Part shown: one piece after another, positions 1 to 63,785 of the stretch | Numbering within the stretch: position 1 is the stretch's first letter | Layout of the letters: every line of letters starts with the position of its first letter | Origin: Mytilus edulis | Lineage: Eukaryota | Reading direction: 5' to 3' | Assembly (NCBI RefSeq): GCF_963676685.1 | Contig: NC_092352.1 | Coordinates: 20,708,001-20,772,000, forward strand | Length of the DNA stretch: 64,000 nt | Position numbers and translations under genes: made by a program | The notes under the pieces: generated by a model | The model's input: only the letters and a program-made list of their open reading frames with translations | Told to the model about the DNA's origin: nothing | Database searches by the model: none

Positions 1-47
1 TCAAAAACCTCAATAAATTTATTTAAAATCACCACATTATAAATATC

Positions 48-11255: not shown

Positions 11256-11523
11256 CTTTAATGGTTCATCTATAAATAGAACAAAATCATGTATTATACT
11301 GAGACATCTTTAATGGTTCATCTACAATAGAACAACAATATTTACTATGAATAATACTGGGACATCTTTAATGGTTCCTCTATAAATAGAACAAAATCAT
11401 GTATTATACTGGGACATCTTTAATGGTTCATCTACAATAGAACAACAACATTTACTATGAATAATACTGGGACATCTTTAATGGTTCATCTACAATAGAA
11501 CAAAAACATTTACTATGTATAAT
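11244..11523. repeat. Tandem repeat (alternating 52/58-bp units, 5 copies) spanning the splice acceptor and ATG of the RING gene
   Basis: ATACTGRGACATCTTTAATGGTTC.. units start at 11244, 11296, 11354, 11406 and 11464. Confidence 0.9.
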
Positions 11524-45900: not shown

Positions 45901-48900
45901 TTCAGGATATCATTTAATGATATACCTGCTCTTTTAGCTGCAGAAGAGGATGCAGATCTGTATGAATGAGCTTTAAATTTCAACACATTTATGCCTGCAT
46001 TAGACAGTACCAATTTTAACCATCTGGCAATTGAACAGCTTGTTACAGCTTTTAAAGTTCTGAATGAAATAAACAATTTACTACTTTTTCTTAAGTCTTT
46101 AGTTCGGTGAATATAATGTTTTAAAGTTTCAACAGGACAAATTTCTTTTTTCTGAAAGACAGGAATAATAACATCTTGTCCTATGTTTTTAGGTCGTGTC
46201 GTCTTTAATAAAGTTGTGACACGAAATATAAATGATGTGCCTGTACTGAGAACAGAGTTTAAATTAAGACTTGCAAGTGTTTGTGATCTTTGAGCAGATG
46301 CTAGAGCAATTAAAGCAACACATTTGAGAGTTAACATTTTTAAATCTAAATCTTGTAACGGGTACAGAGATTCTAAATAGCTCAATACTTTGCCAACATC
46401 CCAAGTAAACAAATATCTTGGTCTTGGGGGTCTCAGATTAAACACACCCTTCAAAAATCTTTGAATATAACTGTTATTTTCAAAAGATAAGTTACCCAAT
46501 AAAGTCAGTGTCTGACATATTGCTGATTTGTGACTATTTATACAGCTATAAGATCGTCCTTTTTGAAACAAAATGGACAGATAATCTAAAAGTAACTTTA
46601 CAGATGGAGAAGTGGGACTAGTTTGTCTTGAATTACACCACAAAACCCAGCTTCTCCAAGAGTATTCATACTGAACATTGGTTGACTTTCTCCAAGATTT
46701 AAGAAAGATTTTTGTAGTTTTGTCTGAAAAACCTTGATTAAGGAGATGTTTCCTGAAACAAGACAGGCGATAAGAAACATTTTTCTTGTGTTCATTGTAT
46801 GACTTTGATTGTTGTGTGCTAGAGTTAGCAAGTTTGACAACTGAGGCAATTTTACAGGAAAATCTATTAATGCTTTCAATAACTTTGGATACCATAACTG
46901 AGTTGTCCATACAGGGACGATTAAAATTGCCCTGCTTACCTGATCGTCTTCTATCTTTTGAAGTACTCTGCTGATTTGACTGAAAGGAGGAAATATATAA
47001 GGATATAATTTATGCCATGAAAATGAAAAAGCATCAGTTGCATAAGCATCAGGATCTGGAAACCAGCTTACAAAATTATTCAATTGGTTATTAAGCCTTG
47101 AGGCAAACAAATCCGTATCTGGGATGAAAAAATGTTTGGTTACTTCATTAAAAACTGATTCATTGAGTTTCCACTCTGAAGTGTCATTAAAATTTCTTGA
47201 TAAATTATCTGGTATAATATTTTCTTTCCCTGGAATATGAACAGCAGATAGTAAAACTTTGTTTTTTATACACCAATGCCATATTTGTTTTGTTATTTCT
47301 AATAAAGATAAAACTGATCCTCCTTGATTATTTATGTAGTTTACAGCAGTGGAACTATCAGATTTTACACAAATGTGTGTTCTTTCTACGTGACAGCAAA
47401 GTGATATTATGCTAAAATAGATAGCTTTTAATTCTAGAATATTAATGTGTAGACACTGCTCCTCCAAACTCCAATGACCTTGAGTTTGCTTTCCATGAAA
47501 AACAGCTCCCCAACCATTGAGGGAGGCATCTGTATGTAAATAATAACTTGGGGAATCATTTCTAATAGGTCTCCCATTAACTGTTTTAACATTTTCTAAC
47601 CACCAAACTATTTCAGATTTGCCTTCTACTGATATGTTCAAAAATGAATTGAAATTGTTATTTGATGCATGTAAAGCTTGTGTTTTGTCTAAATCTAAAT
47701 ATCTATGAAACAAGTGAGCATATTGTACTGCATAATGTGCAGATGAATAAAGTCCTGTTAATTGTGCTAGACTTCTAATTGATACTTTGTGAGCTTTAAG
47801 CATTTTATTTGACAGTTCAATTATTTTCCGTACTTTCTCCTCTGGTAAAAATACCTTAAATAGTACTGAATCTATAATATATCCCAAAAATATAATTCTA
47901 TTGGTTGGAATAAAAACTGATTTTTCAATATTGATGTCAAACCCAACTGACTCTATAAAGGTTTTAACCTTTTCTGTATTTTGGACTGCCAAATCAAAGT
48001 TTTCTGCTTGCAAAAGGGAATCATCAATGTAAAAATATGAATCAATACCCATGCTCCGAATATGTGAAAAAATTACTTTCAGAATTTTTGTAAATACTCT
48101 TGGAGCAGAAGCAATACCGAAAGGTAGACATTGAAATTCATATAACTTTTCATTCCATATGAATTTTAGATATTTTCTGTCCGATTCATAGATTGAAATG
48201 GAAAAATATGCATCTGTCAAATCCAAAGATGTAAAAAAGCTATTTTTAGAAATTCCTTTTAAAATCAAATCTAGCGTTTCTTGTTTAAAATGGTGATAGC
48301 TTATAAATTGATTCAATGGTTTCAAATTGATGACTGGCCTAAATTTTCCATTTTTCTTTTTTACTAGAAATATATTTGAAATAAACTGTTCTGATTCATC
48401 AAAAGATTCCTTGATAGCACCTTTCTCAAGCATATCAACTATTTCTTTGTCAATAAGGGCCTTTTCCTTATTGTTAAATTTTATAGGAACAGGAATTTTT
48501 TCCTGAATTGGCTTTTCATCAAATTCTATCTTATATCCCTTAATTGTAGAAATAATCCAATTGTCTTTTGTTAAATATTTCCAATTTGAAATAAAATTTT
48601 TCAGTTTACCCGACTTTCTTTTAATATTTATACTTTTATTTCTCACCTTTAAAATCTTCTTTTCTGATTGAAGGTGTTGGGTCTGTTTCCTCTCAATTGA
48701 CCCCGTGGGCTCTGATAACTTTGTCTTGGCTGATAGCCCCTTCTGCCTAAAAAACGGCTTCTTCCCCTGAAACTTCCTCTGTAGTTTGAATTTCTACCAT
48801 AGCTACTAGTAATGTTCTTGTTTATTTTATTAATCTCATTGATATCTTTCAATCGCTTGCCAACTTCATCTCCAAAAAGGTTAGAACCTACATCTTCATT

Positions 48901-51900
48901 GCGATTGCAAAGTTGGTGATATTTCTTGTCTATGTGTGGCTTTAAAGACATACGTCTTTTAATTGATAGTTCAAAGTGAGTATTGCTCAAGATTGCCAAA
49001 GCTTTAGAAATATTTTCCCTCATAAGTTTTACATCTGGAGTTTTGGATTTCAAAATTTCAGCCACTCTTATCAATGGTACCATACCACAACCCAGCGATT
49101 TTTGTATAGTTTGTAGATTCAAATCTGCAGTTTTAGCTTTTCTTTCAAGAAATTGCCATATCTCAGCATTAACTGGGGGTGCTACAAGACTTTTGCAATT
49201 TACCGGTATCTTCATTTCTCTCGTCATTACTGACACATCTGATTTCTTCTTACAAATATTGTCAAAAACTTTTGCTAATGATGCGCTTACCTCTTCATCA
49301 TATTTTTCATCATCTTCAAATATTTTAGGTAATTCATAGTCAAATTCGTCATCAGATGCTATAACCTGAGGTTCATTCTCTTCGTCAGAAAAGATATTGT
49401 AGTGAGTGTCAATCACCTGCTCATCAGACTCATTCTCAGAAAATTCCATGTTATTGTCAATATTTTTACTGGACATTTCATTATTGTGACTCAAAGTGGA
49501 TACTAGAGTATCCGACAAACCTTTAAATAAAGTTTTAAGCAACTCTGACTGGTCAACCTGATTCTTTGCAGCAGTTTTCTTTACTGTGCCTGTGCCAGGT
49601 TTCGTAGCCTTCGTACCTTTACCACGTTTTTTGACCGGACTTACTGTTATTCCGCTCCCTGATGGCAACTCATTGTCCATCTCAGTCACCTGCCTTTTAG
49701 GTGTCTTTTGCTTACTGGCTAAAGCCTTGCCTTTTGTAGAGCTCGTACTCTTCTTACCTTTTTCAGTCTGTTGTTGTTTTTGTTTTTGTGTGACTGCCAT
49801 TCGGATGTCCTCGGCAATTAATATTTGTGCTTCCGGGTTATCGAACTCCGGGTCATTAATGTTCTCAACTTGAGAAAAACCAGAAAACGAAGCATCAACT
49901 TCTTCGTCTGACGCAAATAGTTTTAATATTTCATCGTCATTGTCACTTTCACTGTCGCTTAAACGCGATGTACAGCGCGACATAACTTCTGTATATAAAC
50001 AGCTGACAGATTCTGCCAAGTTTTGAAATTTATTTTCAATGTTTCCGATTCGGATAAATTATTTTACAACAGAGTCTGTTGCAAAACTTTTATTTCGTGT
50101 ACTAAATCGAGTCGACTTAACCACGTGCGGCCTTTTAAAATAAAGAGGCTGGTCACTACTCTGCACGGGCTTATATAGTAGTGGTCAGACAAAAAATCAC
50201 TCAGCTGTGAAAAAAGGCGTGCGGCCTTGACATAAAGTAAAGGTTCACTTATTAACCTGAGCAAGCCCAGGATTATGATATATAATGAGTTAAAAATTAA
50301 AAGTTGATTTCTGATCAAATATTCAATAAATATTTTTGTGCGTTTGATAAATAAAAATTTGAATATTATTATTTTTAAATTAAGGTCTTCATAAACATAG
50401 TCTATAAATTAACAACAAAAAAACATGCAAATTCATTGGAAAATACTAAAAAATGTGTCTAAAATAAACTTTTTATTATTAAATCAGATTTTATATTGAA
50501 CAGATTGAAAATATATTAATGATATATTGAATAAATACAATATTGCATACTGTATGCAATATTGTATTTATTCAATATATCATTAATATATATGTGAGTT
50601 TATAGAAGTATTTCAATAAAAAAACAGATAATTTTTTGGTCAGGTAAATTAATCAATGAGTGATATATTTCTCCTAGAAGAAATTTAAAGGTCCTGGTGA
50701 ATGAACTATACAGAGAACAATTTACCTGTTGTATTTGTTAGATGGGACAATAGAACTTACAAAAGTTTAAATCGACAGGTAACTTGCAGATGAATCTATG
50801 GAAAACTATCATAGGGTTCGCAATAATATGTTTATTTTGTTAAGGAGAAAATAAATGACAATATCTATTATAGTGCATACTTTATTTCTTAAGCTGTTGA
50901 GTATACAAATATGGTAGGAATGCAAATGTAAAAAAGAATTACGAATTATATTAAAATTGTTTTTATATGTCTTTTCAGACTTTTGAAGGACATGACAGTT
51001 CTGTTTTAAGAGTGGTCTTTTTAACTAGAGGCATGCAGTTATTATCATGGTTTGTATACATGTTTTCTTACATTACATTGTGGAACATGTGTTGCACATA
51101 TAGACATGTATAGATATAAGAAGATGTGGTATGGGTGCCAATGAGTCAACTCTCCATCCAAGTCACAATTTTTTTAAAAGTAAACCTTTATGTAGGTCAA
51201 AGTATGGTCTTAAACATAGAGCCTTGGCTCACACCGAACAGCAAGCTATAAAGGGCCCCAAAAATGACTAAATTTTTTGATTTACACTCATATATGTCTA
51301 ATATCAGTTGCTTTACTTCTGAAGATATTTATTATATAACTTAGCAAATGACAAAATATTTTAAAAGTACACTCATATATAATGTCTATATTTTAATGGT
51401 TTTTTAGTGGGTTCAGATGGATTATTAAAAATCTGGACAATAAAAACAAATGAATGTGTAAAGACATTTGATGAGCATGATGATAAAGTTTGGGGGCTTG
51501 CTGTCAGTTCTGATGAAAACCGTGTTATCACTGGTGGTGCAGACTCAACCATTCTGGAATGGCAAGTAAGTCAAGAATAGTGCAATACTAAGGACCAGAT
51601 ACAGTCATACCTCCAGTGGTGATTAGTTTTTTGTTTGTTGAACTATTATTTAGGAATATCAATGATGGGTAATCTTCTTTTCTTCTCACAAGCTTATTTT
51701 ATTGCTCAAATATCTTTTAGGTAATAAATAGACATTTTTGAAGAACCTTGTAAAACATGCTTGCCTTCTGTTTGACCTTGTTTTGCACATGGTTTGATCA
51801 TATCGAAAATTCTATTTGCCAACTATACCTTTATTTTTAAAGTGATAAACACATGGCTTCCTATTTCTTCTGCAAAGATAAATATTGTTTAATTTTTCTC

Positions 51901-54900
51901 CCATGTATTGTTTATAGTAGCTAATATAGACTGTGCAAGTATGTTTAAAATCTTGAACTATTACAGGATATAACACAGGAAGTAGAAGACACCACAAGGA
52001 AAGAACAAGAACAGTTTATTATCAGGTAATATAAATATACATGTTTTAAAAGCATCTTAAATTAGGTTTATATATTTGATACAAGATTGAACATAAAGAA
52101 AATTCTGCATGATAGATATTGTTTTACAATGAGAATTGTTAATACTGTAGAATGTAGATAACTTATTATTCATGGGGTATTAACTTTTGTGGATTTGTTG
52201 GTATAGGTGAATCATGAATTTAAATGTTCGATTAAGAAATGAAGTCTTAACTTGAAAAATTGTGTTGTCTCTTGCTTTTTTCAAGTGAATGTCAGATATG
52301 ATATTTCCCCCCTTTTTTCCAGAGAACAGGAATTGTCAAACTTGATTCAGCAGAAGAAATACCACAAAGCAATTGCATTGGCAATTAAGTTAGAACAACC
52401 CTTTAGAGTGCTGACCATTTTAAAAGGTTTGTCTAATTAGAATGTCAGAAAATAACAAATAAAATAATAGCCATGTAAGACTTTGATGAAAGCTTCAACT
52501 TCCACAGATTTTTCGACCTATGATAGTAGAGGGGCATTATGTTTTCTGGTCTGTACGTCCGTTCGTCCGTTAGTCCGGATTCAGGTTAAACATTTTGGTC
52601 AAGGTAGTTTATGATGAAGTTGAAGTCCAATCAACTTTAAACTTAGTAAACATGTTCCCCATGATATGATCTTTCTAATTTTAGTGCCAAATTAAAGTTT
52701 TGACCCCAATTTCACGGTCTACTGTACATAGAAAATGATAGTGTGAAGTTCAGGTTAAAGTTTTTGGTCAAGGTAATTTTTGATGTAGTTGAAGTGCAAT
52801 AAACTTGAAACTAAGTACACATGTTCCCTATGATATGATCTTTCTAATTTAAATTCCAAATTAAAATTTTGACCCCAATTTCACGGTCCACTGAACATGG
52901 AAAATGATACTGCGAGTGGGGCATCCGTGTACTATGGACACATTCTTGGTTTTTATACGACGCAAAATTTGAAATTTTTTTCGTCGTATATTGCTATCAC
53001 GTTGGCGTCGTCGTCTGCGTCGTCGTCGTCGTCGTCGTCGTCGTCCAAATACTTTTAGTTTTCGCACTCTAACTTTAGTAAAAGTGAATAGAAATCTATG
53101 AAATTTTAACACAAGGTTTATGACCACAAAAGGAAGGTTGGGATTGATTTTGGGAGTTTTACCCAACATTTTAGGAATTAGGGGCCAAAAAGGGCCCAAA
53201 TAAGCATTTTCTTGGTTTTCGCACTATAACTTTAGTTTAAGTTAATAGAAATCTATGAAATTTTGACATAAGGTTTATGACCACAAAAGAAAGGTTAGGA
53301 TTGATTTTGGGAGTTTTGGTTCCAACAGTTTAAGAATTAGGGGCCAAAAAAGGGCCCAAATAAGCATTATTCTTGGTTTTCGCACAATAACTTTAGTTTA
53401 AGTAAATAGAAGTCAATGAAATTTAAACACAATGTTTATGACCACAAAAGGAAGGTTGGTATTGATTTTGGGAGTTTAGGTCCCAACAGTTTAGGAATTA
53501 GGGGCCAAAAAGGGACCCAAATAAGCATTTTTCTTGGTTTTCGCACCATAACTTTAGTATAAGTAAATAGAAATCTATGAAATTTAAACACAAGGTTTAT
53601 GACCATAAAAGGAAGGTTGGTATTGATTTTGGGAGTTTTTGTCCCAACAGTTTAGGAATAAAGGGCCCAAAGGGTCCAGATTTAAACTTTGTTTGATTTT
53701 ATCAAAAATTGAATAATTGGGGTTCTTTGATATGCCGAATCTAACTGTGTATGTAGATTCTTAATTTTTGGTCCCGTTTTCAAATTGGTCTACATTAAGG
53801 TCCAAAGGGTCCAAAAATTAAACTTAGTTTGATTTTAACAAAAATTGAATCCTTGGGGTTCTTTGATATGCTGAATCTAAAAATGTACTTAGATTTTTTA
53901 TTATTGGCCCAGTTTTCAAGTTGGTCCAAATCGGGGTCCAAAATTAAAATTTGTTTGATTTCATCAAAAATTGAATAATTGGGGTTCTTTAAGCCAAATC
54001 TAACTGTGTATGTAGATTCTTAATTTTTGGTCCCGTTTTAAAATTGGTTTACATTAACGTCCAAAGGGTCCAAAATTAAACTAAGTTTGATTTTAACAAA
54101 AATTGAATTCTTGGGCCTCTTTGATATGCTGAATCTAAACATGTACTTAGATTTTTGATTATGGGCCCAGTTTTCAAGTTGGTCCAAATCAGGATCCAAA
54201 ATTATTATATTAAGTATTGTGCAATAGCAAGAAATTTTCAATTGCACAGTATTCAGCAATAGCAAGAAATCTTCAATTGCACAGTATTGTGCAATAGCAA
54301 GAAATCTTCAATTGCACAGTATTGTGCAATAGCAAATATTTTCAATTGTACAGTATTGCACAATAGCAAGAAATATCTAATTGCACAATATTGTGCAATA
54401 GCAAGAAATTCCAATTGGATTTCAATTGGAGTTATCTTTCTTTGTCCAGAATAGTAGTTGAATCAACTTAAATCATTGTTTTATACAATATACAATGTAT
54501 ATTCACTTTTACTACCAACTGATAGATTAAAACAATCTTTACCATTCAGTGATAACAAGCACTTTTTTTACATTTTAATATTTTATGATGTATTTAAATG
54601 AGTAGTTATTGTTGCAAACTTCATTAGAAATTTGAATTGAGATCAGTTTTGAAATAAGGGAAAGGGGGATGTGAAAAAAAAATTGGAGGGTCAATTTTTT
54701 TCATTTCAGATTTCATAAATAAAAAGAAAATTTCTTCAAACATTTTTTTGAGAGGATTAATATTCAACAGCATAGTGAATTGCTCAAAGGCAAACATTTT
54801 TTTTTAAGTTCATTAGACCACGTTCATTCTGTGTCAGAAACCTATGCTGTGTCAACTATTTAATCACAATCCAAATTTAGAGCTGAATCCAGCTTGAATG

Positions 54901-57900
54901 TTGAGTCCATACTTGCCCCAACTGTTCAGGGTTCAACCTCTGCGGTCGTATAAAGCTGCGCCCTGCGGAGCATCTGGTTTTTATCTACAATGAGTTTATC
55001 TTCAGTGTGCATAAAACATTCAGACGGCTTTAGGTATTATCTAATTGTGTAGCATTATGAATTTTTTAAAAGAAAAGAAAAAAAGAGTCTACATAATTTG
55101 GGCTGAAAGCAATAATTATATATAACACTGAAATTTCAAATGGGATCATTTTAACTTCAGAAGAAATGATGCTGGATAAAGATTTGTAATCAATGTGCTT
55201 TGGGTGAACATTGATAAAGAGATCAAAATAATTGAACATTCAAAAAGTCAGATAATAAAATCAACGGTACCAATTTTGTTGCACCAGATGCGCATTTCGA
55301 CAATATATGTCTCTTCAGTGATGCTCGTGGCCAAAATATTTGAAATCCAAAGCTTATATAAAAGATGAAGAGCTATAATCCAAAATGACTTCAAATAATT
55401 GTAAAATTAAATGAGGCTTAGTTATAAGACGATATTTGATTAAAATTTTTATAAACCAATAGTTATGCTAAGAGTTAACATGAGAAGCGCATGCGCAGAT
55501 AGAGGTCACTATTCAGAGATATTCATGTATAATTGAATAAATTTCTGGGTAGGTAATGATGAAAAAAGGGTGGGCATGTTAACTCTTAGCATAACTATTG
55601 GTTTATAAAAATTTTAATCAAATATCGTCTTATAACTAAGCCTCATTTAATTTTACAATTTTTATAAACCAATATTATGCAAGAGTTCCCATGAGATTTG
55701 AGAGCCAATTTACTTGAATACGTGTAATTTATCCCTGTTGTGTAGGATTACAATAATGTATTGGATTCCCAAATTACTATAAATTAATATAGCAATCAGC
55801 TCACAATTAGTTATATATATCTATAACTGTTTCAACGACATACGGAATACCAATATATCTGTAGGCAACAAAGCCATTTCATAATATGGATTTTGGTAAT
55901 GATAAAGACATTTTCAAATAATATTGTATTAACTTATATACATCATGAACATTGGTACATTATAAGCAAAAACAAAACTATTTTCCACGAAGTACTCGTA
56001 CACTATAGTTATCATTGACCTCTTGAACAGTAACTGGTCTATTGTAAAATTGCCTAAAAGTAGACTCATTTGTCCATCCTGCTGATTTTAAAATAGAATT
56101 TACTGACACCCCAGCTCTAAGTGCTGCTGATGTACTAGCTCCCCTAGTACTGTGTGTTTTAAAAACAGAAGTATTTACACCTGCAAGCTTTAAAACCAAT
56201 TTAAACCAATTACTAATTGTTGACTTTGTTGGGTGATGGTATGGTTTTACAAATGTAACAAAAAGTTTTTGAGATGTACGTATTGCAGATGTTCTTTCGA
56301 TATAGGCGTTTAAAACTGTTACAATACACAGTCTTGTGTCATCAACAAATGCTGGCAAACATATTGGTGATAAATGTTTTCCTGGTTTTGAGGTTTTCAA
56401 AACCTCATTAATTTCAATTACAACATTGTCTTTTGTAATTTTCATAAAATCTAAATCTACACAATGTAACGTCTGTATTCTCTGTCCAGTAACTAGTGCT
56501 AATAACATGACTAATTTCAAAGTTAAACATCTCAGTGACAAAAGCTTTACAGGCGATAAAGTAATCAAAAATTCTAATACAACATTAACATCCCATGTTT
56601 GCTGATATCTAGGGAACATTGGTCGTTTATTATAAACTCCTCTGAGGAACCTTTTAACTAAAGGCCACTGACCAATCGGCAGTGTTTTTCCCAATGTCAA
56701 ATATGACGATAATGCAGATCGTGCTGTGTTAATAGAACTATATCCTACACCGGACTCGTATAAAACTGTCAAAAATTCCACTACATCCACCTCAGTTCGC
56801 GTAAAAATATCAATCTTTCGTTGACAACAAAATGTACACCATTTTTTGAGATATGTCCAATACTGTTTTTGTGTACTTTGTCTCCAGGATGAGATGACAA
56901 TTTCTGCAGCCTTTTTTGATAGTCCTGTATTTTGAACAATTTGCCCGACAATCTGAAGACACCCAAAATCAGTTTTTTCAACGGATGTTTCTTTTGAGGA
57001 TCTGTTGGCAGTATCAACAACTGTTGTCCTTTTTCCCTGGGTATTATGTAAGAATCCTGAACAATATGATGCAGTATTTGAGGGAACCAATGTTGAGTGC
57101 TCCACAAAGGTGCTATTAAGGTTATTTCTGCTTCCTCCAAAATCAGTTTTTGGATAACTTTTCCTACCATGCTAAAAGGAGGAAAAACAAATGAGTTAAA
57201 GTTAGTCCATCTTATAGAAAAAGCATCTACTGCTTCAGCATTAGGATCAGGTAAGTATGAAATATACCTCGATAACTGATGATTTATCCTTGAAGCAAAT
57301 AAATCAATATCATGCGGACCATATATTGAATTAATACACATAAAAACATTAGTGTTAAGTTTCCATTCTAGATCTGTATTATTAGAACGTGACAATTTGT
57401 CGGCTTCAACATTTGTTTTTCCCGGTAAATGACAAGCACTTAACCAAATGTTTCTGTGTATACACCATTGCCATATTTCCATTGTTAAGGTATTAAGAGA
57501 TTGAATTCTACCTCCCATTTTGTCTATATAGGTCACAGCTACCATATTATCCATGTATATTCGAACATGTTTATCAGATTTTGTTGAACAAAAACATTTA
57601 AATGCTAAAAACGCTGCTTTCAGTTCTAAATAATTTATGTGTAATTTCTGCTCTTCATAAGACCAAAAACCCTTGGTTTGAAGTTGTGTATTGTCGACAA
57701 CACCACCCCAACCAGTTTTTGAACTGTCTGTTTTTAAAATGATCTCAGGATCTTTTCGTACTAATGGTTTAAAACTAGACTCAACATGAGAAATCCACCA
57801 ATTTAACACATCTACTGATTCATTTGAAATGATGATTTTAGTGTCAAAATCGCCATTGTTTTGTTTTAAAAACTTGTCTTTTTCTATTTCTAAAGATTTT

Positions 57901-60900
57901 ATATATATAAGTGCATGTTCAACTCCTGGTTCGGCAGCAATCAATTTGCCTATAATCTGTGCAAATTGCCTGATTGACATTTGTCTGTTTTTAACATATT
58001 TACAGCATGTAAGTTTTATTGCTTGTGCTTTTTCAGTTGTAAGTTTAATTGTCATTGTTATTGAATTCACAACAAATCCTAAAAATGTAATTGTTTGTGT
58101 CGGTTCAAATACAGATTTGACAGGATGAATAGTAAAGCCTAATTTATCCAATAAGGTGACTGTATCAGAAATATTAATTGCACATTGCGAATAACTATCA
58201 CTGATCAAAAGACTATCATCAATGTAAGCTACATTTTTGTGTCCAATTTTTCTTAAATGTGAAAATGGCACTTTCAAAACTTTTGTAAATATCCTTGGCG
58301 CAGTTGTCAGCCCATTAGGCAAACATGTATATTCATACAACTGTTCATTCCAATAGAACCGTAAATATTTTCGGTCTTTGTGGTCAATAGAAATAGAATA
58401 ATATGCGTCTTTCAAATCAATAGAAGCAAACCAGCAGTTTTGTGACACACATTGTATTGCTGACTTTAATGTTTCCATTTTAAAATGGTGTTTTTCAATA
58501 TCATTGTTGAGAACTTTTAAATTTAAAATTACTCTACATGTACCATCCTTCTTTGGTCTTGTAAAAATATTTGAAACATATTGATTTTTAATATACGTCA
58601 CTGGTTTTATAATTTGTTTCTGTAAAAATTTATCTATTTCTAACTGTACCATATTTGTTTCATCTTTATCAAATTGTAATAAATTTGGTTCTTTGTTTTG
58701 ATATGGAATTTGCTCAAACTCAATTTGATACCCTTTTACAACATCTAAAACCCAGTTATCTGAAGTAAGACTCATCCAATTATCTAGGAATGTTTTCACT
58801 TTCCCACCAATGAAATTGTCTGGTGTGTTTGAAAATGTAAATTGTGTATTCAATTGCTGAACTGAAGTACTCACAGGCAAACTAATTTGCTTTGGCAATT
58901 CTAAAACTTCTTGTCCTGCTCTTGGAACTTCTTTTTGAACTTTTTCTTTTTGTAAGTGGGTTTCCCTAAAAAATCTTTCTTGTTTGATGGTTTGTCAAAA
59001 TGACGTTTTGGTACATGTACATATGGCTTCTTAAAAGTTTTCTTGTCATCATGTGATTTCTTTCCAACATTAAAATTGGTTTTGCCCAGTTTCTTCCCTA
59101 CTGTATATTCAGCATCCATTTCTTTGACTTTATCTTTGATGTCATTTCCAAAGAGAAAATCAGTTACTGGAACATCATCTTTGCATAAAGCTTTATATTT
59201 TGGTTGTATTTCTGCTTGTATTAAAGCTCTTCGTCTAAAAGTAATGTCTGCATACGTGACTTGAGTCATTTGGTACGCGTCCTTACAGAGTTGTGTAGCA
59301 GAGTGTACCTCTTCTGTCGTGAGTCCATCATTGGTTTGAGATTTACCAAGAAACATGTCCATTAAATACAGCATAGGACACGCTGCTTTGCCCAATAGGT
59401 TTTGATTTTTTTGTAGTTTGACGTCGTTCATTCTATTAGATATTGACATCTGTGACCAGATACCTGAAAAGGAAATGAATTCCTGTATTTTATGTCGGCC
59501 TCAATCAAATAATTTATATTGATTTGAATTAAATTTTAAAAAATACATTTACATGTACATGTATATAAATATATATTTATTTTCAAAGAATTGAATTTTA
59601 ATTAATTTTAAAATTTAACATGTACATTTTTGTACATGTATCATATGTTTAATAGTATATTTACTTTATATACACTCACCCAAATTAATTTTTGGGACTG
59701 TCAAACTGTGTACATTTTCTGGCTTTGCATACTTTTTGGTTAGCTCATCAACTTTGTTTTGCTTGGCCTTTTTTCTCAAGCCATCATTGACAACAGATGC
59801 CAGTTCATCATTTATCTTTGGACCAGCTTTCTCTTCAGTTACCATGAAGCCCTTCATATCTTCAATGACAGACATAGTGTCATTGTTTTTATTAGAAGTA
59901 CTATTACTGTTAATGTTAGTATGTATTTCTTGTTGATCAAGTTCATTGTCAGAATTATTTGAGCTTTCTGATTCACTTTCACTTGAGACATCAGATAAAG
60001 GGCTTGCTTCCCTTTGATTTTGTTTGTTGTTTTGTGATTGGCAAAGTTCTTGAAGTTCTTTCATGTAACTTTGTGTCAAAGACTCAGATTGTACTCGTGA
60101 TCCATGTCCGTGGCCACTTTCAGTTTCATATCTTTGTTTTTTAGAACTTGATGGGCTTGCGTCATCACTGGCAGATACAGTACATGTTGTACCTCGTTTG
60201 CCACATTTGTTTTTCTTAACTGGCGTGTTAGAATCAGTTCTTTCATTGTTCAACAATGCTTGTGTTATCATTTGAGTTTGTAGCAGTAACTGATACAGAT
60301 CCGGTTGTTTGTCAACATCCGGTGTTTGGTTGATTGACACATGTGACAATGGAGCTCCGCCCCCTACGCACAAATTGTCTACATTTTCAAGTCTAGCTTC
60401 AAACACAAGTTCATTATTAGAAGCGTTATCAATATTGCAGTGTTGTTGATTAACTTCATGAAAATGAAGAAATCTACTGTCATTCGAAGAATGTCTTTCC
60501 ATTTTGGAATGTTCTTCCTTTTCATCCGCCATTACGGTCGGATATTTGGACAGTCACACTGTGGTCACAAGAACGACCTCGACCGCAGTCGTCAGTCTTA
60601 TAATGTTCAAGGACCTATAACAGCAAACGTTGCTGATATCACTGTTCATCCATTGAACATAATAATAAATCCAATTACTAAGAATAGAATCAAAACTTTC
60701 AATAATAAGTTTCTAAAATTTTCCACGTGTTAACCTCTTAAAATCTGCTAACGCAGTAACCTCTATCTGCGCATGCGCTTCTCATGGGAACTCTTAATGA
60801 CAAATCAGTTAAAACTTAAATGCTATATCACTATGCATACCGAGTAAAGTCAGTCTCAAATTAATAAAATGTTATTTGTATTTTAAAATACTTCTATGGA

Positions 60901-63785
60901 TCGAATCAACGAGGACAAATGTATTTTCAATAATAAATTTAAAAAAAATATCTTACACCAATTTATTGAAGAATTGAAATTATTCACCAACGTCCATTTT
61001 TGATTGATAGAAGGACAAAATAATCTTTAAAATACTTTTTCCCCTTGCTTCAAAGTTACAGCACTACATTTAAACAATTTTAACAATTACATATACTGTG
61101 ATGGTGGCAATAGAATGAGAATCAATCTATCATTTCCCAAGAGGTCAAACATATGAACGATTTCAAATCATAAGTACCATGTACATGATATATTTAATGT
61201 TTCAGAAATATTAGCTAGCCAGTCTGGAGTAGAAGACTTACAAGCAACTTTACAAAAATTAAGACAGGACCAGTTGGGTAAGCATTTGTTATCATATCTT
61301 TTGAGATTATTTTAGGTTTAAAATGTCCAGTTGGACCTTAATATCCAGGCCCATTCAGTTACTGTTTGTTTGTTTATAAATTTTTTGGTACTTTTCAGTA
61401 GTTAATGAAGTTTGGGTAAAATATATATGGCATTTCTTGAAACGATATATTTCTTTCATTGTCTATATAAAACTTGCCTTGAAGCTGAAATAAAGATACA
61501 GATACCAGTATTGTGTGTATTATTGATTTAAAAAAAAAAAAAAAAGTAACACAATTTTTTTTTTAAATCAAGATAAGTATATAAAACTTTTTTTGTTTTC
61601 AGATGCTGTTTTGAGATTTTGTGGTCAGTGGAATACAAACAGTAAAAACTGTCATGAAGCACAGTTTATATTGTCTGTAGTGTTGAAATCTTACACAGCA
61701 GAAGATCTTCTGAAGTTTCCTAATATGAAATCAACAATAGAATCCTTATTACCTTACACCGGTAAGTAAATGACAGGTGCTCTAGTAATTGTAATGTAAG
61801 CTTATAATGGGATGGCAAATTGCTATACTGTTTTTGAATACAAATTTTATGATTATTTTAGTTTAATGAATCAGACAAAAGTTTTATGTTCACCAATTTA
61901 ACATATTAAAAGTTCCAAAATTGTCTAAATCTTTATAAGTATTTAAAAGCAATAAAACACCTGCAGAAGCTAAATGATATTTCACTAGTAAAGGCTGTTC
62001 TATAAAGGCATACATAAAACTAGGGAATAGCAACTTAAATTTACCACAATGGATGGGTATAAAATATGTTGTATGGGTTTGAATGTACGCAGCACTCTGA
62101 AATGGCTTCTATGGGTTGTCACTCTTTTTTTTCAAAATGCTTTCCCTGGGTGCAATGTGCATTTTAATGAAACGGCCCCAAGTCTGACATACATAAGTAT
62201 ATGAATGTAAAACAGATGAGCACCCTATACCAAGCTCAACATATATGGAATTGTTATGTGTTGAATTTATTTTCAGAGAGACATTTCAACAGATTGACAA
62301 GACTACAACAACAAGCCATGTTTGTGGAGTATACATGGCAGTGTATGAAAGGAATAACTGATATAAACAGGTATTCATACACAATTATATTTATATACTA
62401 CAACAACAAGCCATGTTTGTGGAGTATACATGGCAGTGTATGAAAGGAATAACTGATATAAACAGGTATTCATACACAATTATATTTATAAAGCATTTTA
62501 TCCTTTATATGCTAGAGGGTTTTTTTAAATACAGAAGACACACACATAAATTATTATGTGTGTGAATGAAAAGAAAATTTTTTATTATCTGACATAAAGG
62601 TATTGTTTCTTTTAATATGCTTTGTTTAATATTTTGTAAACACAGTGTTTAAAATCAAAATTCTAGCCAAAAAGCATGTAGAATACCCTGGTTCTGATAA
62701 GATATTAATATGAACAGTTTCCGCTTGCTGCTCTTTGGTTGGGTTGTTGTCTCTTTGACACATTCCCTAATTCCATTCTCAATTTTATCTTTTTGTATGA
62801 CAAAATAATAACATCAAAACATTATGATTGCAGTATAACTAAGCTATTTTTCACTGTGTGGTTTTCAAGACCTGCAAGATAAATCAGTACTTGATCACAT
62901 TTTTATCTTTGTCTTTTTTTAAAGCAGTGAAACTGAAGACAGAGTCGGACAATTTGTTATTGACAAAAATCCAAATAATGTTGATGACGATGAAAATATG
63001 GAAATGTCTGATGAAGATGAAGACAAAATGAAACACAGTAATATGGTAAGTAACTAGATAGTAATGGGAACCATCACAGCAGCCCTGCAGCATGTAAACA
63101 AGTAATGGATGATGCCAATAGGGTTATTACTTAGAAACGATATTTATACAAACACACAGGGATGTTTTAGTTGAGTTATGTTTTTGACCATATCTTTCAA
63201 TGTAGGGTTTCCTTCTGGGTACATGACACACCAATTAAGTAGTGGCAAACTCCAGGTAGTTTAAAGTAAGGCAGCAAAAAGGATTTTAGGAATATTCACA
63301 CCAAGTTTCAACGCTGAACTCATACCATATTTATTGTTTTAATGAGGATTTTAAAATTAGAGTTTTGAAATTATTTGTGACTGACAGATGCATGGAAGAG
63401 CAAGTGATACTATAGGCCTTCCATTTCTGTATCTGTACGGGACTAACAAAATCAAAATGCTCACAGCATTCATACATGTTACAGATTACTTGTTATCTGT
63501 CAATAAAGAATTAGGGCTTTCCTAAAAATCATTAACAAGTATTGATTGTACTGAAAGAAAAGACAATTAGTTGTATAATTTCCTGTAAACTTTATTTACA
63601 CATTTGTTGAAAAAAAATAAATTGTTTTAACTTTAATTAAAAAAAAAAGTTCTAAATTTCTATTTTGACAGGTTAGTAAAATGGAGGAAAGCAGTAAACT
63701 GTCTTTAAAAAGAAGAAAAATAAGGAAGAAAATAGACAGTCGTAAAAGAGTAAAACAAGCTGTCAACAAAAAGAAGAGGAAATAA
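15898..63785 (+). CDS. TBL3: Transducin beta-like protein 3 (UTP13; WD40 repeats + Utp13 C-terminal domain), gene span, 24 coding exons, ~864 aa once the 1-nt excess in exon 17 is removed
   Basis: The spliced exons give FYTGGKIQ, HGHTDIVL, AHDKDINSIAVSPND, GHRKGIWCVQFSPVDQ, TFEGHDSSVL, WNTNSKNCHEAQ and LLPYTERHFNRL, all TBL3 hallmarks. All introns are GT-AG with compatible phases except 16/17. Confidence 0.95.
16735..19247 (+). mobile_element. Dispersed (SINE-like) repeat interrupted by a HINE
   Basis: Sequence at 16735-16921 resumes at 19030. Its 3' end GTTGTTGTCxCTTTGACACATTCCCxATTCCATTCTCAAT recurs at ~62730-62790. Confidence 0.55.
16922..19029 (+). mobile_element. Helentron-type HINE, copy 1
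   Basis: SubTIRs TATACGACCGCA / TGCGGTCGTATA, (CGT)n microsatellite, ~158-bp internal tandem repeats, 3' GC hairpin, T-rich insertion site, no TSD. Closely related copy at 52950-54980. Confidence 0.88.
19275..20637. mobile_element. TIR DNA element (CAGGGCTCAC..) with 6-bp TSD
   Basis: TIR CAGGGCTCACGCTAC / GTAGTGTGAGCCCTG (14/15). AGTGTT is duplicated at 19269-19274 and 20638-20643. Confidence 0.8.
22605..22962. repeat. ~88-100-bp tandem repeat, 4 copies, inside MULE-1
   Basis: ATTCTAAATAAAGTATTTTCGCGGACTATGACAG..GTGCAGGATATCTTAGTAG repeated. Confidence 0.9.
24530..24759 (+). mobile_element. Short dispersed repeat (ends GAGTTGTCTCATTGGCACTCA.ACCACATCTTC) inserted in the LINE
   Basis: Splits the LINE sequence GAACAGGCAT^ATAAATCC. 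Other copies at ~3755-3845, ~9870-9927, ~13920-13990 (-) and ~51108-51270 (-). Confidence 0.75.
26257..26308 (+). CDS. TBL3: TBL3 exon 2
   Basis: FAVSQKHEAFYTGGKIQ, flanked by AG/GT. Confidence 0.9.
27117..27212 (+). CDS. TBL3: TBL3 exon 3
   Basis: RSQNGELLFCGCGNKVNVLDVTTGKVTETLEQ. Confidence 0.9.
27174..28048 (+). repeat. 62-bp minisatellite, ~14 copies, made of the TBL3 exon 3 3' end plus its donor site
   Basis: Unit GATGTTACAACTGGGAAAGTMACAGAAACATTAGAGCAG|GTTGGTACAATATATAGTTCTTG. Confidence 0.95.
29437..29484 (+). CDS. TBL3: TBL3 exon 4
   Basis: EEDEEITCYCITPDDK. Confidence 0.88.
30440..30705 (-). mobile_element. Dispersed retro-element-like repeat fragment
   Basis: Shares the CCTGCTCCACATGTGGCA..GTGTTGCT block with fragments at ~15955-16015 (opposite strand) and ~37420-37485. 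Confidence 0.5.
31047..31124 (+). CDS. TBL3: TBL3 exon 5
   Basis: YLIVATRHLVLRQWLWKEKSITRTWK. Confidence 0.9.
31826..31974 (+). CDS. TBL3: TBL3 exon 6
   Basis: AIHNSAVTAMTFDKTSTLLATGSSDSSIKLWD..RGHQGVV. Confidence 0.92.
33073..33243 (+). CDS. TBL3: TBL3 exon 7
   Basis: VVEFHP..LFSSANDNKVRVWD..AHFSVVTSL. Confidence 0.92.
33580..33655 (+). CDS. TBL3: TBL3 exon 8
   Basis: GGRDNILAVWDVEKLQVIKTIPILE. Confidence 0.92.
33880..33976 (+). CDS. TBL3: TBL3 exon 9
   Basis: NVESVVLLPE..VITFGSK. Confidence 0.9.
33992..34200. mobile_element. MITE with G/C-run termini and 6-bp TSD, 15 nt downstream of the exon 9 donor
   Basis: TAAACT at 33986-33991 and 34201-34206; internal (ATCCCGA)-type repeats. Confidence 0.7.
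34683..34885 (+). CDS. TBL3: TBL3 exon 10
   Basis: GSMKIWNV..VVADHTISMYNIENIEIQKQ. Confidence 0.9.
35815..36015 (+). CDS. TBL3: TBL3 exon 11
   Basis: FCGYTDEILDLQFIG..QILHGHTDIVL..ATASK. Confidence 0.93.
36700..36835. repeat. Fold-back element end: perfect 40-bp inverted arms with an inner secondary stem
   Basis: 36700-36739 is the reverse complement of 36796-36835; inner CCCATATCAGC / GCTGATATGGG. Confidence 0.85.
37153..37259 (+). CDS. TBL3: TBL3 exon 12
   Basis: DNSIRMWNLD..GQGHTSSVGSIIFS. Confidence 0.92.
37842..38028 (+). CDS. TBL3: TBL3 exon 13
   Basis: FVVSGGEDCTIKMWD..AHDKDINSIAVSPNDKYIVTASQDKTAK. Confidence 0.93.
38445..38534 (+). CDS. TBL3: TBL3 exon 14
   Basis: LW..GVLRGHRKGIWCVQFSPVDQ. 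Confidence 0.93.
38615..43013 (+). mobile_element. Helentron-type HINE carrying ~8.5 tandem copies of a ~502-bp unit
   Basis: 5' TTTTTAGCTCACCTG + hairpin, (CGTC/CGT)n microsatellite, units at 38720, 39224, 39727, 40228, 40730, 41231, 41730, 42231 and 42728, 3' subTIR AGGTGAGC and hairpin AGGCTCT-AGAGCCT. Confidence 0.9.
43169..43696. mobile_element. Non-autonomous Kolobok-like DNA transposon
   Basis: TTAA TSD on both sides; 12-bp TIR AGTCATATGAAA / TTTCATATGACT with purine-purine termini. Confidence 0.75.
43853..43921 (+). CDS. TBL3: TBL3 exon 15
   Basis: CAVTSSADGTIKIWSLSDFTCVK. Confidence 0.93.
45783..46910 (-). CDS. DIRS-A tyrosine recombinase
   Basis: Catalytic set R (AQRSQ), K (KTTRP), HSYR, W (ANW), Y (FY). 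Overlaps the 3' end of pol. Confidence 0.93.
   Translation of the reverse strand: MDNSVMVSKVIESINRFSCKIASVVKLANSSTQQSKSYNEHKKNVSYRLSCFRKHLLNQGFSDKTTKIFLKSWRKSTNVQYEYSWRSWVLWCNSRQTSPTSPSVKLLLDYLSILFQKGRSYSCINSHKSAICQTLTLLGNLSFENNSYIQRFLKGVFNLRPPRPRYLFTWDVGKVLSYLESLYPLQDLDLKMLTLKCVALIALASAQRSQTLASLNLNSVLSTGTSFIFRVTTLLKTTRPKNIGQDVIIPVFQKKEICPVETLKHYIHRTKDLRKSSKLFISFRTLKAVTSCSIARWLKLVLSNAGINVLKFKAHSYRSASSSAAKRAGISLNDILKTANWASAQTFKKFYCKDIEVDNTNSNYVHSVFNHTFTA
46598..48754 (-). CDS. DIRS-A Pol (RT, RNase H, phage-like DNA adenine methyltransferase domain); probably entered by -1 frameshift
   Basis: LDLTDAY, LPFG, YIDD; TDAS..GWGA, HINILELKA, DNLSR; DLFAS..DAF..YIFPPF. The listed start (48646) is GTG and the frame is open back past 48754. 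Confidence 0.92.
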   Translation of the reverse strand, partial: FFRQKGLSAKTKLSEPTGSIERKQTQHLQSEKKILKVRNKSINIKRKSGKLKNFISNWKYLTKDNWIISTIKGYKIEFDEKPIQEKIPVPIKFNNKEKALIDKEIVDMLEKGAIKESFDESEQFISNIFLVKKKNGKFRPVINLKPLNQFISYHHFKQETLDLILKGISKNSFFTSLDLTDAYFSISIYESDRKYLKFIWNEKLYEFQCLPFGIASAPRVFTKILKVIFSHIRSMGIDSYFYIDDSLLQAENFDLAVQNTEKVKTFIESVGFDINIEKSVFIPTNRIIFLGYIIDSVLFKVFLPEEKVRKIIELSNKMLKAHKVSIRSLAQLTGLYSSAHYAVQYAHLFHRYLDLDKTQALHASNNNFNSFLNISVEGKSEIVWWLENVKTVNGRPIRNDSPSYYLHTDASLNGWGAVFHGKQTQGHWSLEEQCLHINILELKAIYFSIISLCCHVERTHICVKSDSSTAVNYINNQGGSVLSLLEITKQIWHWCIKNKVLLSAVHIPGKENIIPDNLSRNFNDTSEWKLNESVFNEVTKHFFIPDTDLFASRLNNQLNNFVSWFPDPDAYATDAFSFSWHKLYPYIFPPFSQISRVLQKIEDDQVSRAILIVPVWTTQLWYPKLLKALIDFPVKLPQLSNLLTLAHNNQSHTMNTRKMFLIACLVSGNISLIKVFQTKLQKSFLNLGESQPMFSMNTLGEAGFCGVIQDKLVPLLHL
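48649..49983 (-). CDS. DIRS-A Gag-like ORF1
   Basis: First ATG at 49983. P-VN-EIW..D..LQ..Q, LS-KRR..LKP and LFG motifs typical of DIRS ORF1; RG-rich tail. Confidence 0.85.
   Translation of the reverse strand: MSRCTSRLSDSESDNDDEILKLFASDEEVDASFSGFSQVENINDPEFDNPEAQILIAEDIRMAVTQKQKQQQTEKGKKSTSSTKGKALASKQKTPKRQVTEMDNELPSGSGITVSPVKKRGKGTKATKPGTGTVKKTAAKNQVDQSELLKTLFKGLSDTLVSTLSHNNEMSSKNIDNNMEFSENESDEQVIDTHYNIFSDEENEPQVIASDDEFDYELPKIFEDDEKYDEEVSASLAKVFDNICKKKSDVSVMTREMKIPVNCKSLVAPPVNAEIWQFLERKAKTADLNLQTIQKSLGCGMVPLIRVAEILKSKTPDVKLMRENISKALAILSNTHFELSIKRRMSLKPHIDKKYHQLCNRNEDVGSNLFGDEVGKRLKDINEINKINKNITSSYGRNSNYRGSFRGRSRFLGRRGYQPRQSYQSPRGQLRGNRPNTFNQKRRF
50511..50591. repeat. Perfect AT-rich palindrome, 40-bp arms with a 1-nt spacer
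   Basis: ATATATTAATGATATATTGAATAAATACAATATTGCATAC-T-reverse complement. Confidence 0.95.
50979..51049 (+). CDS. TBL3: TBL3 exon 16
   Basis: TFEGHDSSVLRVVFLTRGMQLLS, phase-2 donor. Confidence 0.92.
51408..51565 (+). CDS. TBL3: TBL3 exon 17 (one extra G near 51409-51411)
   Basis: GSDGLLKIWTIKTNECVKTFDEHDDKVWGL..WQ. 158 nt where 157 is needed. Confidence 0.88.
51967..52025 (+). CDS. TBL3: TBL3 exon 18
   Basis: DITQEVEDTTRKEQEQFII. Confidence 0.88.
52323..52426 (+). CDS. TBL3: TBL3 exon 19
   Basis: EQELSNLIQQKKYHKAIALAIKLEQPFRVLTILK (start of Utp13 domain). Confidence 0.92.
52508..52949 (+). mobile_element. Short HINE-like element
   Basis: GGGGCAT motif near both ends, (GTCC/GTTC)n microsatellite, two ~170-bp internal repeats, 3' hairpin GTGT..ACAC. 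Confidence 0.7.
52950..54980 (+). mobile_element. Helentron-type HINE, copy 2 (same family as 16922-19029)
   Basis: Same termini, (CGT)n microsatellite and internal repeats. Confidence 0.88.
55978..57105 (-). CDS. DIRS-B tyrosine recombinase
   Basis: GQRIQTL, KTSKPG, HSTR, AGW and FYNR catalytic motifs. Confidence 0.93.
   Translation of the reverse strand: MEHSTLVPSNTASYCSGFLHNTQGKRTTVVDTANRSSKETSVEKTDFGCLQIVGQIVQNTGLSKKAAEIVISSWRQSTQKQYWTYLKKWCTFCCQRKIDIFTRTEVDVVEFLTVLYESGVGYSSINTARSALSSYLTLGKTLPIGQWPLVKRFLRGVYNKRPMFPRYQQTWDVNVVLEFLITLSPVKLLSLRCLTLKLVMLLALVTGQRIQTLHCVDLDFMKITKDNVVIEINEVLKTSKPGKHLSPICLPAFVDDTRLCIVTVLNAYIERTSAIRTSQKLFVTFVKPYHHPTKSTISNWFKLVLKLAGVNTSVFKTHSTRGASTSAALRAGVSVNSILKSAGWTNESTFRQFYNRPVTVQEVNDNYSVRVLRGK
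56781..58973 (-). CDS. DIRS-B Pol (RT, RNase H, methyltransferase-like domain); probably entered by -1 frameshift
   Basis: IDLKDAY, LPNG, YIDD; TDSS..GWGG, HINYLELKA, ADKLSR; DLFAS..DAF..FPPF. The listed start (58898) is TTG and the frame is open back past 58973. Confidence 0.92.
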   Translation of the reverse strand, partial: FFRETHLQKEKVQKEVPRAGQEVLELPKQISLPVSTSVQQLNTQFTFSNTPDNFIGGKVKTFLDNWMSLTSDNWVLDVVKGYQIEFEQIPYQNKEPNLLQFDKDETNMVQLEIDKFLQKQIIKPVTYIKNQYVSNIFTRPKKDGTCRVILNLKVLNNDIEKHHFKMETLKSAIQCVSQNCWFASIDLKDAYYSISIDHKDRKYLRFYWNEQLYEYTCLPNGLTTAPRIFTKVLKVPFSHLRKIGHKNVAYIDDSLLISDSYSQCAINISDTVTLLDKLGFTIHPVKSVFEPTQTITFLGFVVNSITMTIKLTTEKAQAIKLTCCKYVKNRQMSIRQFAQIIGKLIAAEPGVEHALIYIKSLEIEKDKFLKQNNGDFDTKIIISNESVDVLNWWISHVESSFKPLVRKDPEIILKTDSSKTGWGGVVDNTQLQTKGFWSYEEQKLHINYLELKAAFLAFKCFCSTKSDKHVRIYMDNMVAVTYIDKMGGRIQSLNTLTMEIWQWCIHRNIWLSACHLPGKTNVEADKLSRSNNTDLEWKLNTNVFMCINSIYGPHDIDLFASRINHQLSRYISYLPDPNAEAVDAFSIRWTNFNSFVFPPFSMVGKVIQKLILEEAEITLIAPLWSTQHWFPQILHHIVQDSYIIPREKGQQLLILPTDPQKKHPLKKLILGVFRLSGKLFKIQDYQKRLQKLSSHPGDKVHKNSIGHISKNGVHFVVNERLIFLRELRWM
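58901..59463 (-). CDS. DIRS-B Gag-like ORF1, exon 2
   Basis: Acceptor TTTCCTTTTCAG|GT ATC TGG; IWSQM..DVKLQKNQ..RRRALI..LFG. Confidence 0.85.
59680..60532 (-). CDS. DIRS-B Gag-like ORF1, exon 1
   Basis: ATG at 60532. Ends ..KYAKPENVHSLTVPKINL G|GTGAGT. Spliced product is 471 aa. Confidence 0.85.
61206..61277 (+). CDS. TBL3: TBL3 exon 20
   Basis: EILASQSGVEDLQATLQKLRQDQL. Confidence 0.9.
61603..61761 (+). CDS. TBL3: TBL3 exon 21
   Basis: AVLRFCGQWNTNSKNCHEAQ..ESLLPYT. Confidence 0.93.
62277..62370 (+). CDS. TBL3: TBL3 exon 22
   Basis: ERHFNRLTRLQQQAMFVEYTWQCMK. Confidence 0.92.
62302..62490 (+). repeat. 95-bp tandem duplication of the TBL3 exon 22 3' part plus its donor site
   Basis: ACTACAACAACAAGCCATG..ATAAACAG|GTATTCATACACAATTATATTTATA occurs at 62302 and 62397. 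Confidence 0.92.
62925..63045 (+). CDS. TBL3: TBL3 exon 23 (acidic tail; NAGNAG acceptor at 62925 or 62928)
   Basis: Polypyrimidine tract + AAG CAG, open frame SETEDRVGQF..DEDEDKMKHSNM, donor GTAAGT. Confidence 0.75.
63672..63785 (+). CDS. TBL3: TBL3 exon 24 (basic tail, stop)
   Basis: TTTTGACAG|GTT; VSKMEESSKLSLKRRKIRKK..KKKRK* in phase 0. Confidence 0.75.
   Translation, partial: VSKMEESSKLSLKRRKIRKKIDSRKRVKQAVNKKKRK

Follow-up and report, generated by a model that had tools for sequence, protein, structure and literature searches.

With regard to the translation of their enzymes, the tyrosine recombinase retroelements of the DIRS order raise a basic question: by which route do ribosomes reach the second and third reading frames, i.e., pol, which encodes reverse transcriptase, RNase H and a methyltransferase (RT-RH-MT), and the frame for the tyrosine recombinase (YR)? 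The available portions of the pertinent literature do not state this route (PMC7192593, PMC13003380, PMC3266345, PMC5009743, PMC6681497, PMC9210276, PMC3498833, PMC9341512, PMC5633606, PMC8547959, PMC3458567, PMC3950715). Here the question is posed by a window, the whole stretch of 64,000 nucleotides that was analysed, which is part of a large contig in the 1.37-Gb genome of Mytilus edulis and contains two intact tyrosine recombinase retroelements, DIRS-A and DIRS-B, both on the minus strand. We consider it likely that gag of DIRS-B ends in a programmed -1 frameshift site which is combined with an optional pol intron, such that a single shift would yield both Gag-Pol and Gag-recombinase.

DIRS-B (Table 1) belongs with the DIRS1-like elements of the type with a short pol/YR overlap. 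As far as the accessible text of PMC3266345 goes, the likeness extends to the gag, RT-RH-MT and YR reading frames, the inverted termini, the internal complementary region, the ATT at the right end, the YIDD and HSTR motifs and the short pol/YR overlap, which is listed there for molluscs; the difference is that no pol/YR translation route, frameshift site, intron or splice is described in that text. The ORF set of DIRS-B matches Pfam RVT_1, Dam and Phage_integrase, while gag was assigned by its position and its likeness to ORF1 of DIRS-A. The termini are inverted repeats and not split direct repeats (42-nt arms at 55469-55510 and 60755-60796, 93%), and within the internal complementary region positions 55575-55663 pair with 55394-55482, while 55655-55696 match the left terminus of the genomic copy L091. 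Three genomic copies share 99.1-99.5% identity, so that DIRS-B moved recently; the copy in the window is without about 23 nt of the left terminus (at 60795), which are present in the copies L090 and L091. The pol proteins of DIRS-A and DIRS-B are 39.5% identical. DIRS-A is flanked by the two arms of a longer inverted repeat (window 44453-44647 and 50630-50826, 96% complementary), which is probably an older palindromic element. Elsewhere, the window holds a tandem-repeat ORF (3-902, minus strand), a Ser/Arg-rich ORF of 715 codons (7667-9814), a RING/Sina-type zinc-finger ORF (10731-11309) and broken RT-like pieces (11772-13471).

Table 1. Positions in the window of the elements DIRS-A and DIRS-B, their reading frames, introns and predicted recoding sites
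Feature	Position	Strand	Remarks
DIRS-A element	50286-44763	minus	gag, RT-RH-MT and YR frames, inverted termini, internal complementary region
DIRS-A T_TTT_TTA site	48748..48754	minus	same phase as in DIRS-B; 5-bp GC stem from 8 nt downstream
DIRS-A predicted pol intron	46980..48646	minus	AAG/GTGAGA to TTTCCTCCTTTCAG/ (slash, predicted exon border), predicted in-frame join
DIRS-B element, DIRS1-like	55394..60795	minus	gag, RT-RH-MT and YR frames, inverted termini, internal complementary region
DIRS-B internal complementary region	55575..55696		matches both termini
DIRS-B gag exon 1	59680..60532	minus	from the first ATG of the frame; splice joint in 4/4 runs
DIRS-B gag intron	59464..59679	minus	216 nt, GT..AG, phase 1; in all three genomic copies
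DIRS-B gag exon 2	58901..59463	minus	up to the TAG stop
DIRS-B T_TTT_TTA, predicted -1 ribosomal frameshift site	58967..58973	minus	gag F-L, gag phase, in the gag/pol overlap
DIRS-B -1-frame segment common to predicted Gag-Pol and Gag-YR	58875..58967	minus	31 codons
DIRS-B pol ORF	56781..58994	minus	RT with YIDD, RNase H, Dam-like methyltransferase; 737 codons, -1 to gag
DIRS-B pol intron	57172..58874	minus	1703 nt, joint 57171/58875, GT..AG; 3/4 runs
DIRS-B tyrosine recombinase ORF	55978..57171	minus	397 codons, HSTR motif

An earlier sequence-only reading of this stretch had drawn attention to GAT TTT TTA GGG AAA near the end of gag in DIRS-B and to the presence of the same heptamer in DIRS-A. 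Both sites are there: on the minus strand the former is read D-F-L-G-K in the gag frame, and DIRS-A has CGT TTT TTA GGC in the same phase. In complete agreement with that reading, the -1 frame of DIRS-B opens a few codons earlier, after a TGA 7 codons upstream of the heptamer, and reaches Pol without a stop, running via FFRETHLQKEKVQKEVPRAGQEVLELPKQ into the RT-RH-MT ORF and staying open for 728 codons downstream of the heptamer. The gag tails of the two elements were likewise correctly described as lacking obvious similarity, the gag proteins being 21% identical in an alignment that fades in the tail. On the other hand, the pol starts which that reading located 2 nt beyond the gag stop of each element exist as letters, TTG in DIRS-B and GTG in DIRS-A, but these are starts only in the bacterial code, and the GTG of DIRS-A is a predicted splice donor. 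Taken alone, the heptamers of the two elements prove little, because TTTTTTA is common in the window (62 occurrences on the plus and 36 on the minus strand, 98 in total).

Relatives were therefore collected from the same genome. Searching with RT, we obtained 150 scored matches. The 60 that were retrieved as 8-kb loci, mainly because their ORFs were long and their scores distinct, resolved together with DIRS-A and DIRS-B into 29 families at 80% pol identity; L059 and L086, which are without a clear gag/pol junction, were left out of the heptamer count. L059 has a 1098-codon ORF that spans all of pol and has its own Met start. Fourteen of the 29 families form one clade with pol in the -1 frame (SH-aLRT 97 in a quick tree). 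A non-slippery F-L-G or stops in the -1 frame of related elements would, according to the sequence-only reading, have spoken against function; all 14 families carry an in-phase canonical heptamer in the gag/pol overlap (8 U_UUU_UUA, 5 A_AAA_AAC, 1 U_UUA_AAC), followed by a frame that is open to RT. The expected number of families with any X_XXY_YYZ, at the rate found in upstream gag, is 1.77, and outside the gag phase these overlaps contain 2 heptamers in 1000 positions; as the families are related, all such counts are non-independent trials. At the level of individual 8-kb loci, an in-phase heptamer with an open -1 frame occurs in 30 out of 33, while the other three have no in-frame site in the pol ORF, two of them with TTT TTA just upstream of it.

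On the RT tree, DIRS-A and DIRS-B are not sisters. DIRS-A pairs with L051, which carries A_AAA_AAC (support 100), and then with L061, which carries U_UUA_AAC, while DIRS-B belongs to a seven-family U_UUU_UUA clade with L038 as its sister family. Because sister families differ in heptamer type, the motif has switched among forms established as shifty (PMC5009743), the encoded dipeptide changing with it. The earlier argument that conservation of the heptamer supports function thus gains support from the survey but needs correction as to what is conserved: since the sister family of DIRS-A uses A_AAA_AAC, it is slipperiness that is kept, and neither F-L-G nor this particular heptamer. The distance from heptamer to gag stop ranges from 12 to 53 codons across the 14 families, with the -1 frame open throughout, and upstream of the heptamer this frame closes within 1-23 codons; when gag was shuffled synonymously, the -1 frame stayed open in <3% of trials for 12 of the families, while the remaining two kept it open in 44-59%.

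Could the heptamers have arisen by mere chance, the genome being AT-rich, or because the peptide F-L-G is conserved? The frequency of TTTTTTA in the window agrees with this, as does the fact that synonymous shuffles with the gag peptide fixed create heptamers at rates that range among families from 11 to 64% of trials, the upper value being that for DIRS-B. However, the peptide varies (F-L, K-N, L-N) while the X_XXY_YYZ form and its phase are kept, and the joint chance of the heptamers over the 14 families in these shuffles is about 10^-7.6 if families are treated as independent, which renders this explanation hardly credible. The T_TTT_TTA of DIRS-B is, on these comparisons, a conserved -1 frameshift candidate.

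The picture was extended with metagenome contigs, which were scanned with the alignment of the -1 clade as query. The best 80 of 481 matches yielded 53 families, 16 of which were dropped because of truncated or broken junctions. Among the 37 intact-junction families from these best 80 of 481 matches, a set that is biased toward the -1 clade by its query and consists of related, non-independent members, 30 contain a heptamer of the three types found in the own-genome families (0.83 expected). Near-canonical sites are found in five more (four U_UUU_UUG, one U_UUU_UUC), another is represented by a broken copy while its family member L163 has A_AAA_AAC, and the intact-looking family L150 has no heptamer.

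Downstream of the heptamer, a helix beginning after 5-11 nt surpasses 40 shuffled versions (p<=0.05) in 21 of 50 families, including that of DIRS-A, compared with 3 of 50 in upstream controls. For DIRS-B (z about 0) and its relatives L038 and L093, a stem search within 95 nt found none at the usual spacing, and whole-window folding energy 3' of the heptamer gave nothing significant in either element apart from one 104-nt window in DIRS-A (z -2.0). Since U6A shifts 4-6% of ribosomes in reticulocyte lysate when no stimulator is present, as given in the available part of PMC3458567, DIRS-B may rely on the bare heptamer. Two further observations concern possible pairing in this region. In L048 and L049, a 10-bp stem located 9 nt past A_AAA_AAC holds a GTGAGT donor in its 3' arm, such that splicing would break the stem and could alter the shift rate between the two RNAs. 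In DIRS-B, an ACTTAC 9 nt 3' of the heptamer pairs over 6-7 bp with the GTGAGT donor, as seen by eye.

A shift may also arise in the RNA and not on the ribosome if RNA polymerase or RT slips on the U run and adds a base, as described for RT slippage at U6A of HIV (PMC5737442). Contigs from four runs show no indel at the site, bearing in mind that contigs drop rare variants, and stems at ribosome spacing as well as the U_UUA_AAC variant fit ribosomal slippage; we regard slippage in the RNA as extremely improbable. Translation of pol by reinitiation, from a non-AUG codon or from an internal AUG, with the heptamer being incidental, is another conceivable route. The TTG or GTG 2 nt past the stop in both elements could serve it, and an AUG upstream of the conserved RT start is available in 4 of the 14 families, whereas in the other 10 the first pol AUG lies inside it, in DIRS-B by 13 codons. 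Reinitiation would explain neither the heptamers and stems nor why the -1 frame is open throughout the gag tail, and the bases past the gag stop vary among families, all of which makes it very improbable compared with a -1 shift at the heptamer.

Transcript contigs were available from four probable RNA runs belonging to four studies, their identity as RNA runs being presumed. The gag intron is skipped in all four (59679-59464, GT..AG, short side 145-255 nt), and the contigs thus contain spliced RNA. An intron at the same place occurs in L038, and these two are the only ones among the 14 families to have a gag intron. A second joint, that of the pol intron, appears in contigs from three studies with a short side of 30 nt, one below the bar for a bridging record, and is absent from the contigs of run X1. 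In these contigs, presumed to derive from RNA, DIRS-B RNA occurs both with and without the 1703-nt pol intron. Among the DNA matches scored in the genome there is no copy that is without the stretch of either intron. Raw RNA reads of runs X21-X24 over 44500-62500 reach a depth <5 on both DIRS-A and DIRS-B, and the joints listed for these reads are those of a repeat at window 52500-55400. This repeat attracts RNA reads to a depth >1000, most of which stem from its copies elsewhere with 95-99% identity.

The contigs also bear on a possible role of TTTTTTAG as 3' splice site, which would place pol on a spliced RNA and make a ribosomal shift unnecessary. This candidate acceptor is largely refuted, given that all four contig sets cross the site and no joint is found there. 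DIRS-B is indeed spliced at other places, and a G follows TTTTTTA in 8 of 8 own-genome and 15 of 22 metagenome families, but the remaining seven metagenome families have a T and hence no AG, 14 families carry A_AAA_AAC or U_UUA_AAC instead, the purine-rich stretch upstream of the site contains several AG, and the gag donor, being of phase 1, would remain in the gag frame if joined at the site. We attach next to no probability to it.

The pol splice itself fits the -1 frame on both sides. Its donor (CCT/GTGAGT) has pol phase 0, follows the gag stop at a distance of 26 nt and is weak (2.6 bits on a scoring matrix). A GT donor of this phase, 2-26 nt beyond the gag stop, had been noted in most families before the contigs were compared, and the joint uses the donor predicted in this way. 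At the acceptor, TTTTCCTCCTTTTAG/, the AG belongs to the codon for Ser in FPPFS, a motif of the methyltransferase domain, and lies in phase 0 of the YR frame, the pyrimidine tract being formed by the Phe and Pro codons of FPPF. The YR ORF opens exactly at this acceptor. Splicing removes most of pol, and the -1 frame then comprises the 31 codons from the shift site followed in frame by the 397 YR codons.

Both borders recur in relatives. When the top-scoring donor was taken from the stretch that separates the gag stop from the RT start, it had pol phase 0 in 49 of 51 families, compared with 207 of 467 control RT windows, and reached >=4 bits in 36 of 51 families against 5 of 490 controls. Its position relative to the gag stop ranges from -4 to +41 nt. 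A stop codon within 50-55 nt of a splice junction escapes nonsense-mediated decay; with a donor within 41 nt, as found in all 51 families, the gag stop of the spliced RNA would stay in this zone. AGY directly follows FPPF in 24 of the 36 families for which the motif is in hand, and accounts for 24 of 26 Ser codons at this place vs. 28% elsewhere in pol, a contrast whose weight is limited by the slow change between AGY and TCN classes of Ser codons. In all 24 families with the FPPF-S AG, the YR frame is open for at least 209 codons from the AG and closes no more than 23 codons upstream of it, while in 11 of the 12 families without this AG the YR frame is closed within 37 codons. Several of these 12 have a later in-phase AG, and an in-phase acceptor is absent within 160 nt of FPPF in 3 of the 36.

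A narrower interpretation is that the frameshift provides Gag-Pol only and that YR is made from its own AUG, by reinitiation on spliced RNA, from an internal promoter or by a second -1 shift. A YR-frame AUG precedes the conserved SWR motif in 12 of the 14 own-genome families, so that only DIRS-B and L038 strictly need a Gag-YR fusion; the YR frame, which is -1 to pol, moreover begins before pol ends, and a shift from pol to YR has been proposed for Ngaro (Poulter and Butler 2015, as quoted in the available part of PMC13003380). In DIRS-B, however, the first YR AUG is codon 185, well beyond SWR at codon 95. Heptamers in the pol/YR overlap are scattered (11 in 1831 codons) and absent from 5 of the 14 families, and this lack of a conserved heptamer argues against a second shift from pol. 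Finally, the donors of 49 of 51 families have pol phase 0, a constancy for which there is no need unless translation in the -1 frame crosses the junction. We therefore judge the restriction to Gag-Pol unlikely and prefer a single shift that serves both enzymes, the recombinase by way of the splice, a connection on which the sequence-only reading was silent.

For DIRS-B we infer a ribosomal shift with the following products. Most ribosomes would terminate at the gag TAG and release Gag of 471 aa, a length predicted by arithmetic. A few per cent would slip at U_UUU_UUA after codon 450 and continue for 31 codons in the -1 frame. On RNA from which the gag intron has been removed but which retains pol, the shifted ribosomes would enter RT-RH-MT and produce Gag-Pol of about 1178 aa, while on RNA without both introns they would cross the splice into YR and produce Gag-YR of about 878 aa. 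Fully unspliced RNA would be the template for new copies, as it must be since all three genomic copies keep both introns.

A second clade of the same genome has pol in the +1 frame. It comprises 13 families of DIRS elements with long overlaps (among them L062-L069, L079, L082, L083, L089) and is known from this one genome, the scan of viral contigs having found no member. An in-phase TTT CGT or TTT CGG occurs in the overlap of 9 of the 13 families (0.19 expected) and in none of the 14 families of the -1 clade; UUU_CGN is the motif class of influenza PA-X according to the available text of PMC3498833. The gag stop is TGA-C in 10 of 13 families vs. 0 of 14. Of 12 loci examined, 8 have a YR ORF of 817-1007 codons that follows directly after this stop in the gag frame. 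As these families are closely related and also contain donor-like sites and early AUGs, +1 shifting and stop readthrough in this clade remain leads suggested by the sequences. Among individual members, gag of L079 ends in TCC TGA, which equals the antizyme +1 site, and L082 has a 1004-codon frame with both RT and YR matches. Taking both clades together, a tentative proposal, to which we give somewhat less than an even chance, is that all three DIRS proteins stem from gag-initiated RNA by recoding at the gag end in two ways that split the tree: in short-overlap elements a -1 shift would be combined with a splice that swaps pol for YR, FPPF doubling as polypyrimidine tract, and in long-overlap elements a PA-X-like +1 shift at UUU_CGN would give pol and UGA-C readthrough would lead into a gag-frame YR of about 950 codons.

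Several known systems invite comparison. The U_UUU_UUA of HIV-1 gag-pol and the retroviral and coronaviral A_AAA_AAC and U_UUA_AAC sites resemble those of DIRS elements in the heptamers, the gag phase, the position of pol in the -1 frame and the stems of many families, which lie about 7-11 nt downstream (PMC5009743 and PMC3458567, available parts). They differ in that the integrating enzyme of DIRS elements lies outside Pol and would be reached by splicing out pol after the gag stop, and in that DIRS-B has no stem at the usual spacing. Among LTR retrotransposons, -1 frameshifting between gag and pol is reported for 28 of 51 animal elements in the accessible part of the recoding review PMC5009743, where DIRS elements are not mentioned. 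There too, a -1 shift at classical heptamers sets Gag vs. Gag-Pol, but a single polyprotein with a DDE integrase results, whereas two alternative fusions are proposed for DIRS. The proposal for Ngaro-like elements cited above likewise places programmed frameshifting within the DIRS order, yet it concerns the pol/YR overlap, in which the DIRS elements studied here have no conserved heptamer, YR being reached by a splice. Neither a DIRS gag-pol heptamer nor a splice that removes pol was found in the portions of the literature covered, which do not include the main DIRS reviews; the heptamer alone may thus be in print, and the papers of Goodwin and Poulter, Poulter and Butler 2015 or a survey from 2003 on how LTR elements recode between gag and pol may already note it. 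New from this window are the +1 clade and, in transcript contigs, the joint of the pol splice.

If the proposed mechanism holds true, it would specify one heptamer, one donor and one acceptor as testable sites, and the families assembled here would represent dozens of natural -1 cassettes from marine animals, both stem-bearing and stemless. In zebrafish, about 2% of the genome consists of DIRS and Ngaro elements (PMC9341512, available part), and catalogued pol and YR proteins of DIRS elements would start at the wrong place. Three RNA forms would share the work as genome, Gag-Pol message and Gag-YR message. The recombinase would be a Gag fusion, and the ratio of RT to recombinase would be set by splicing after a shared translational step.
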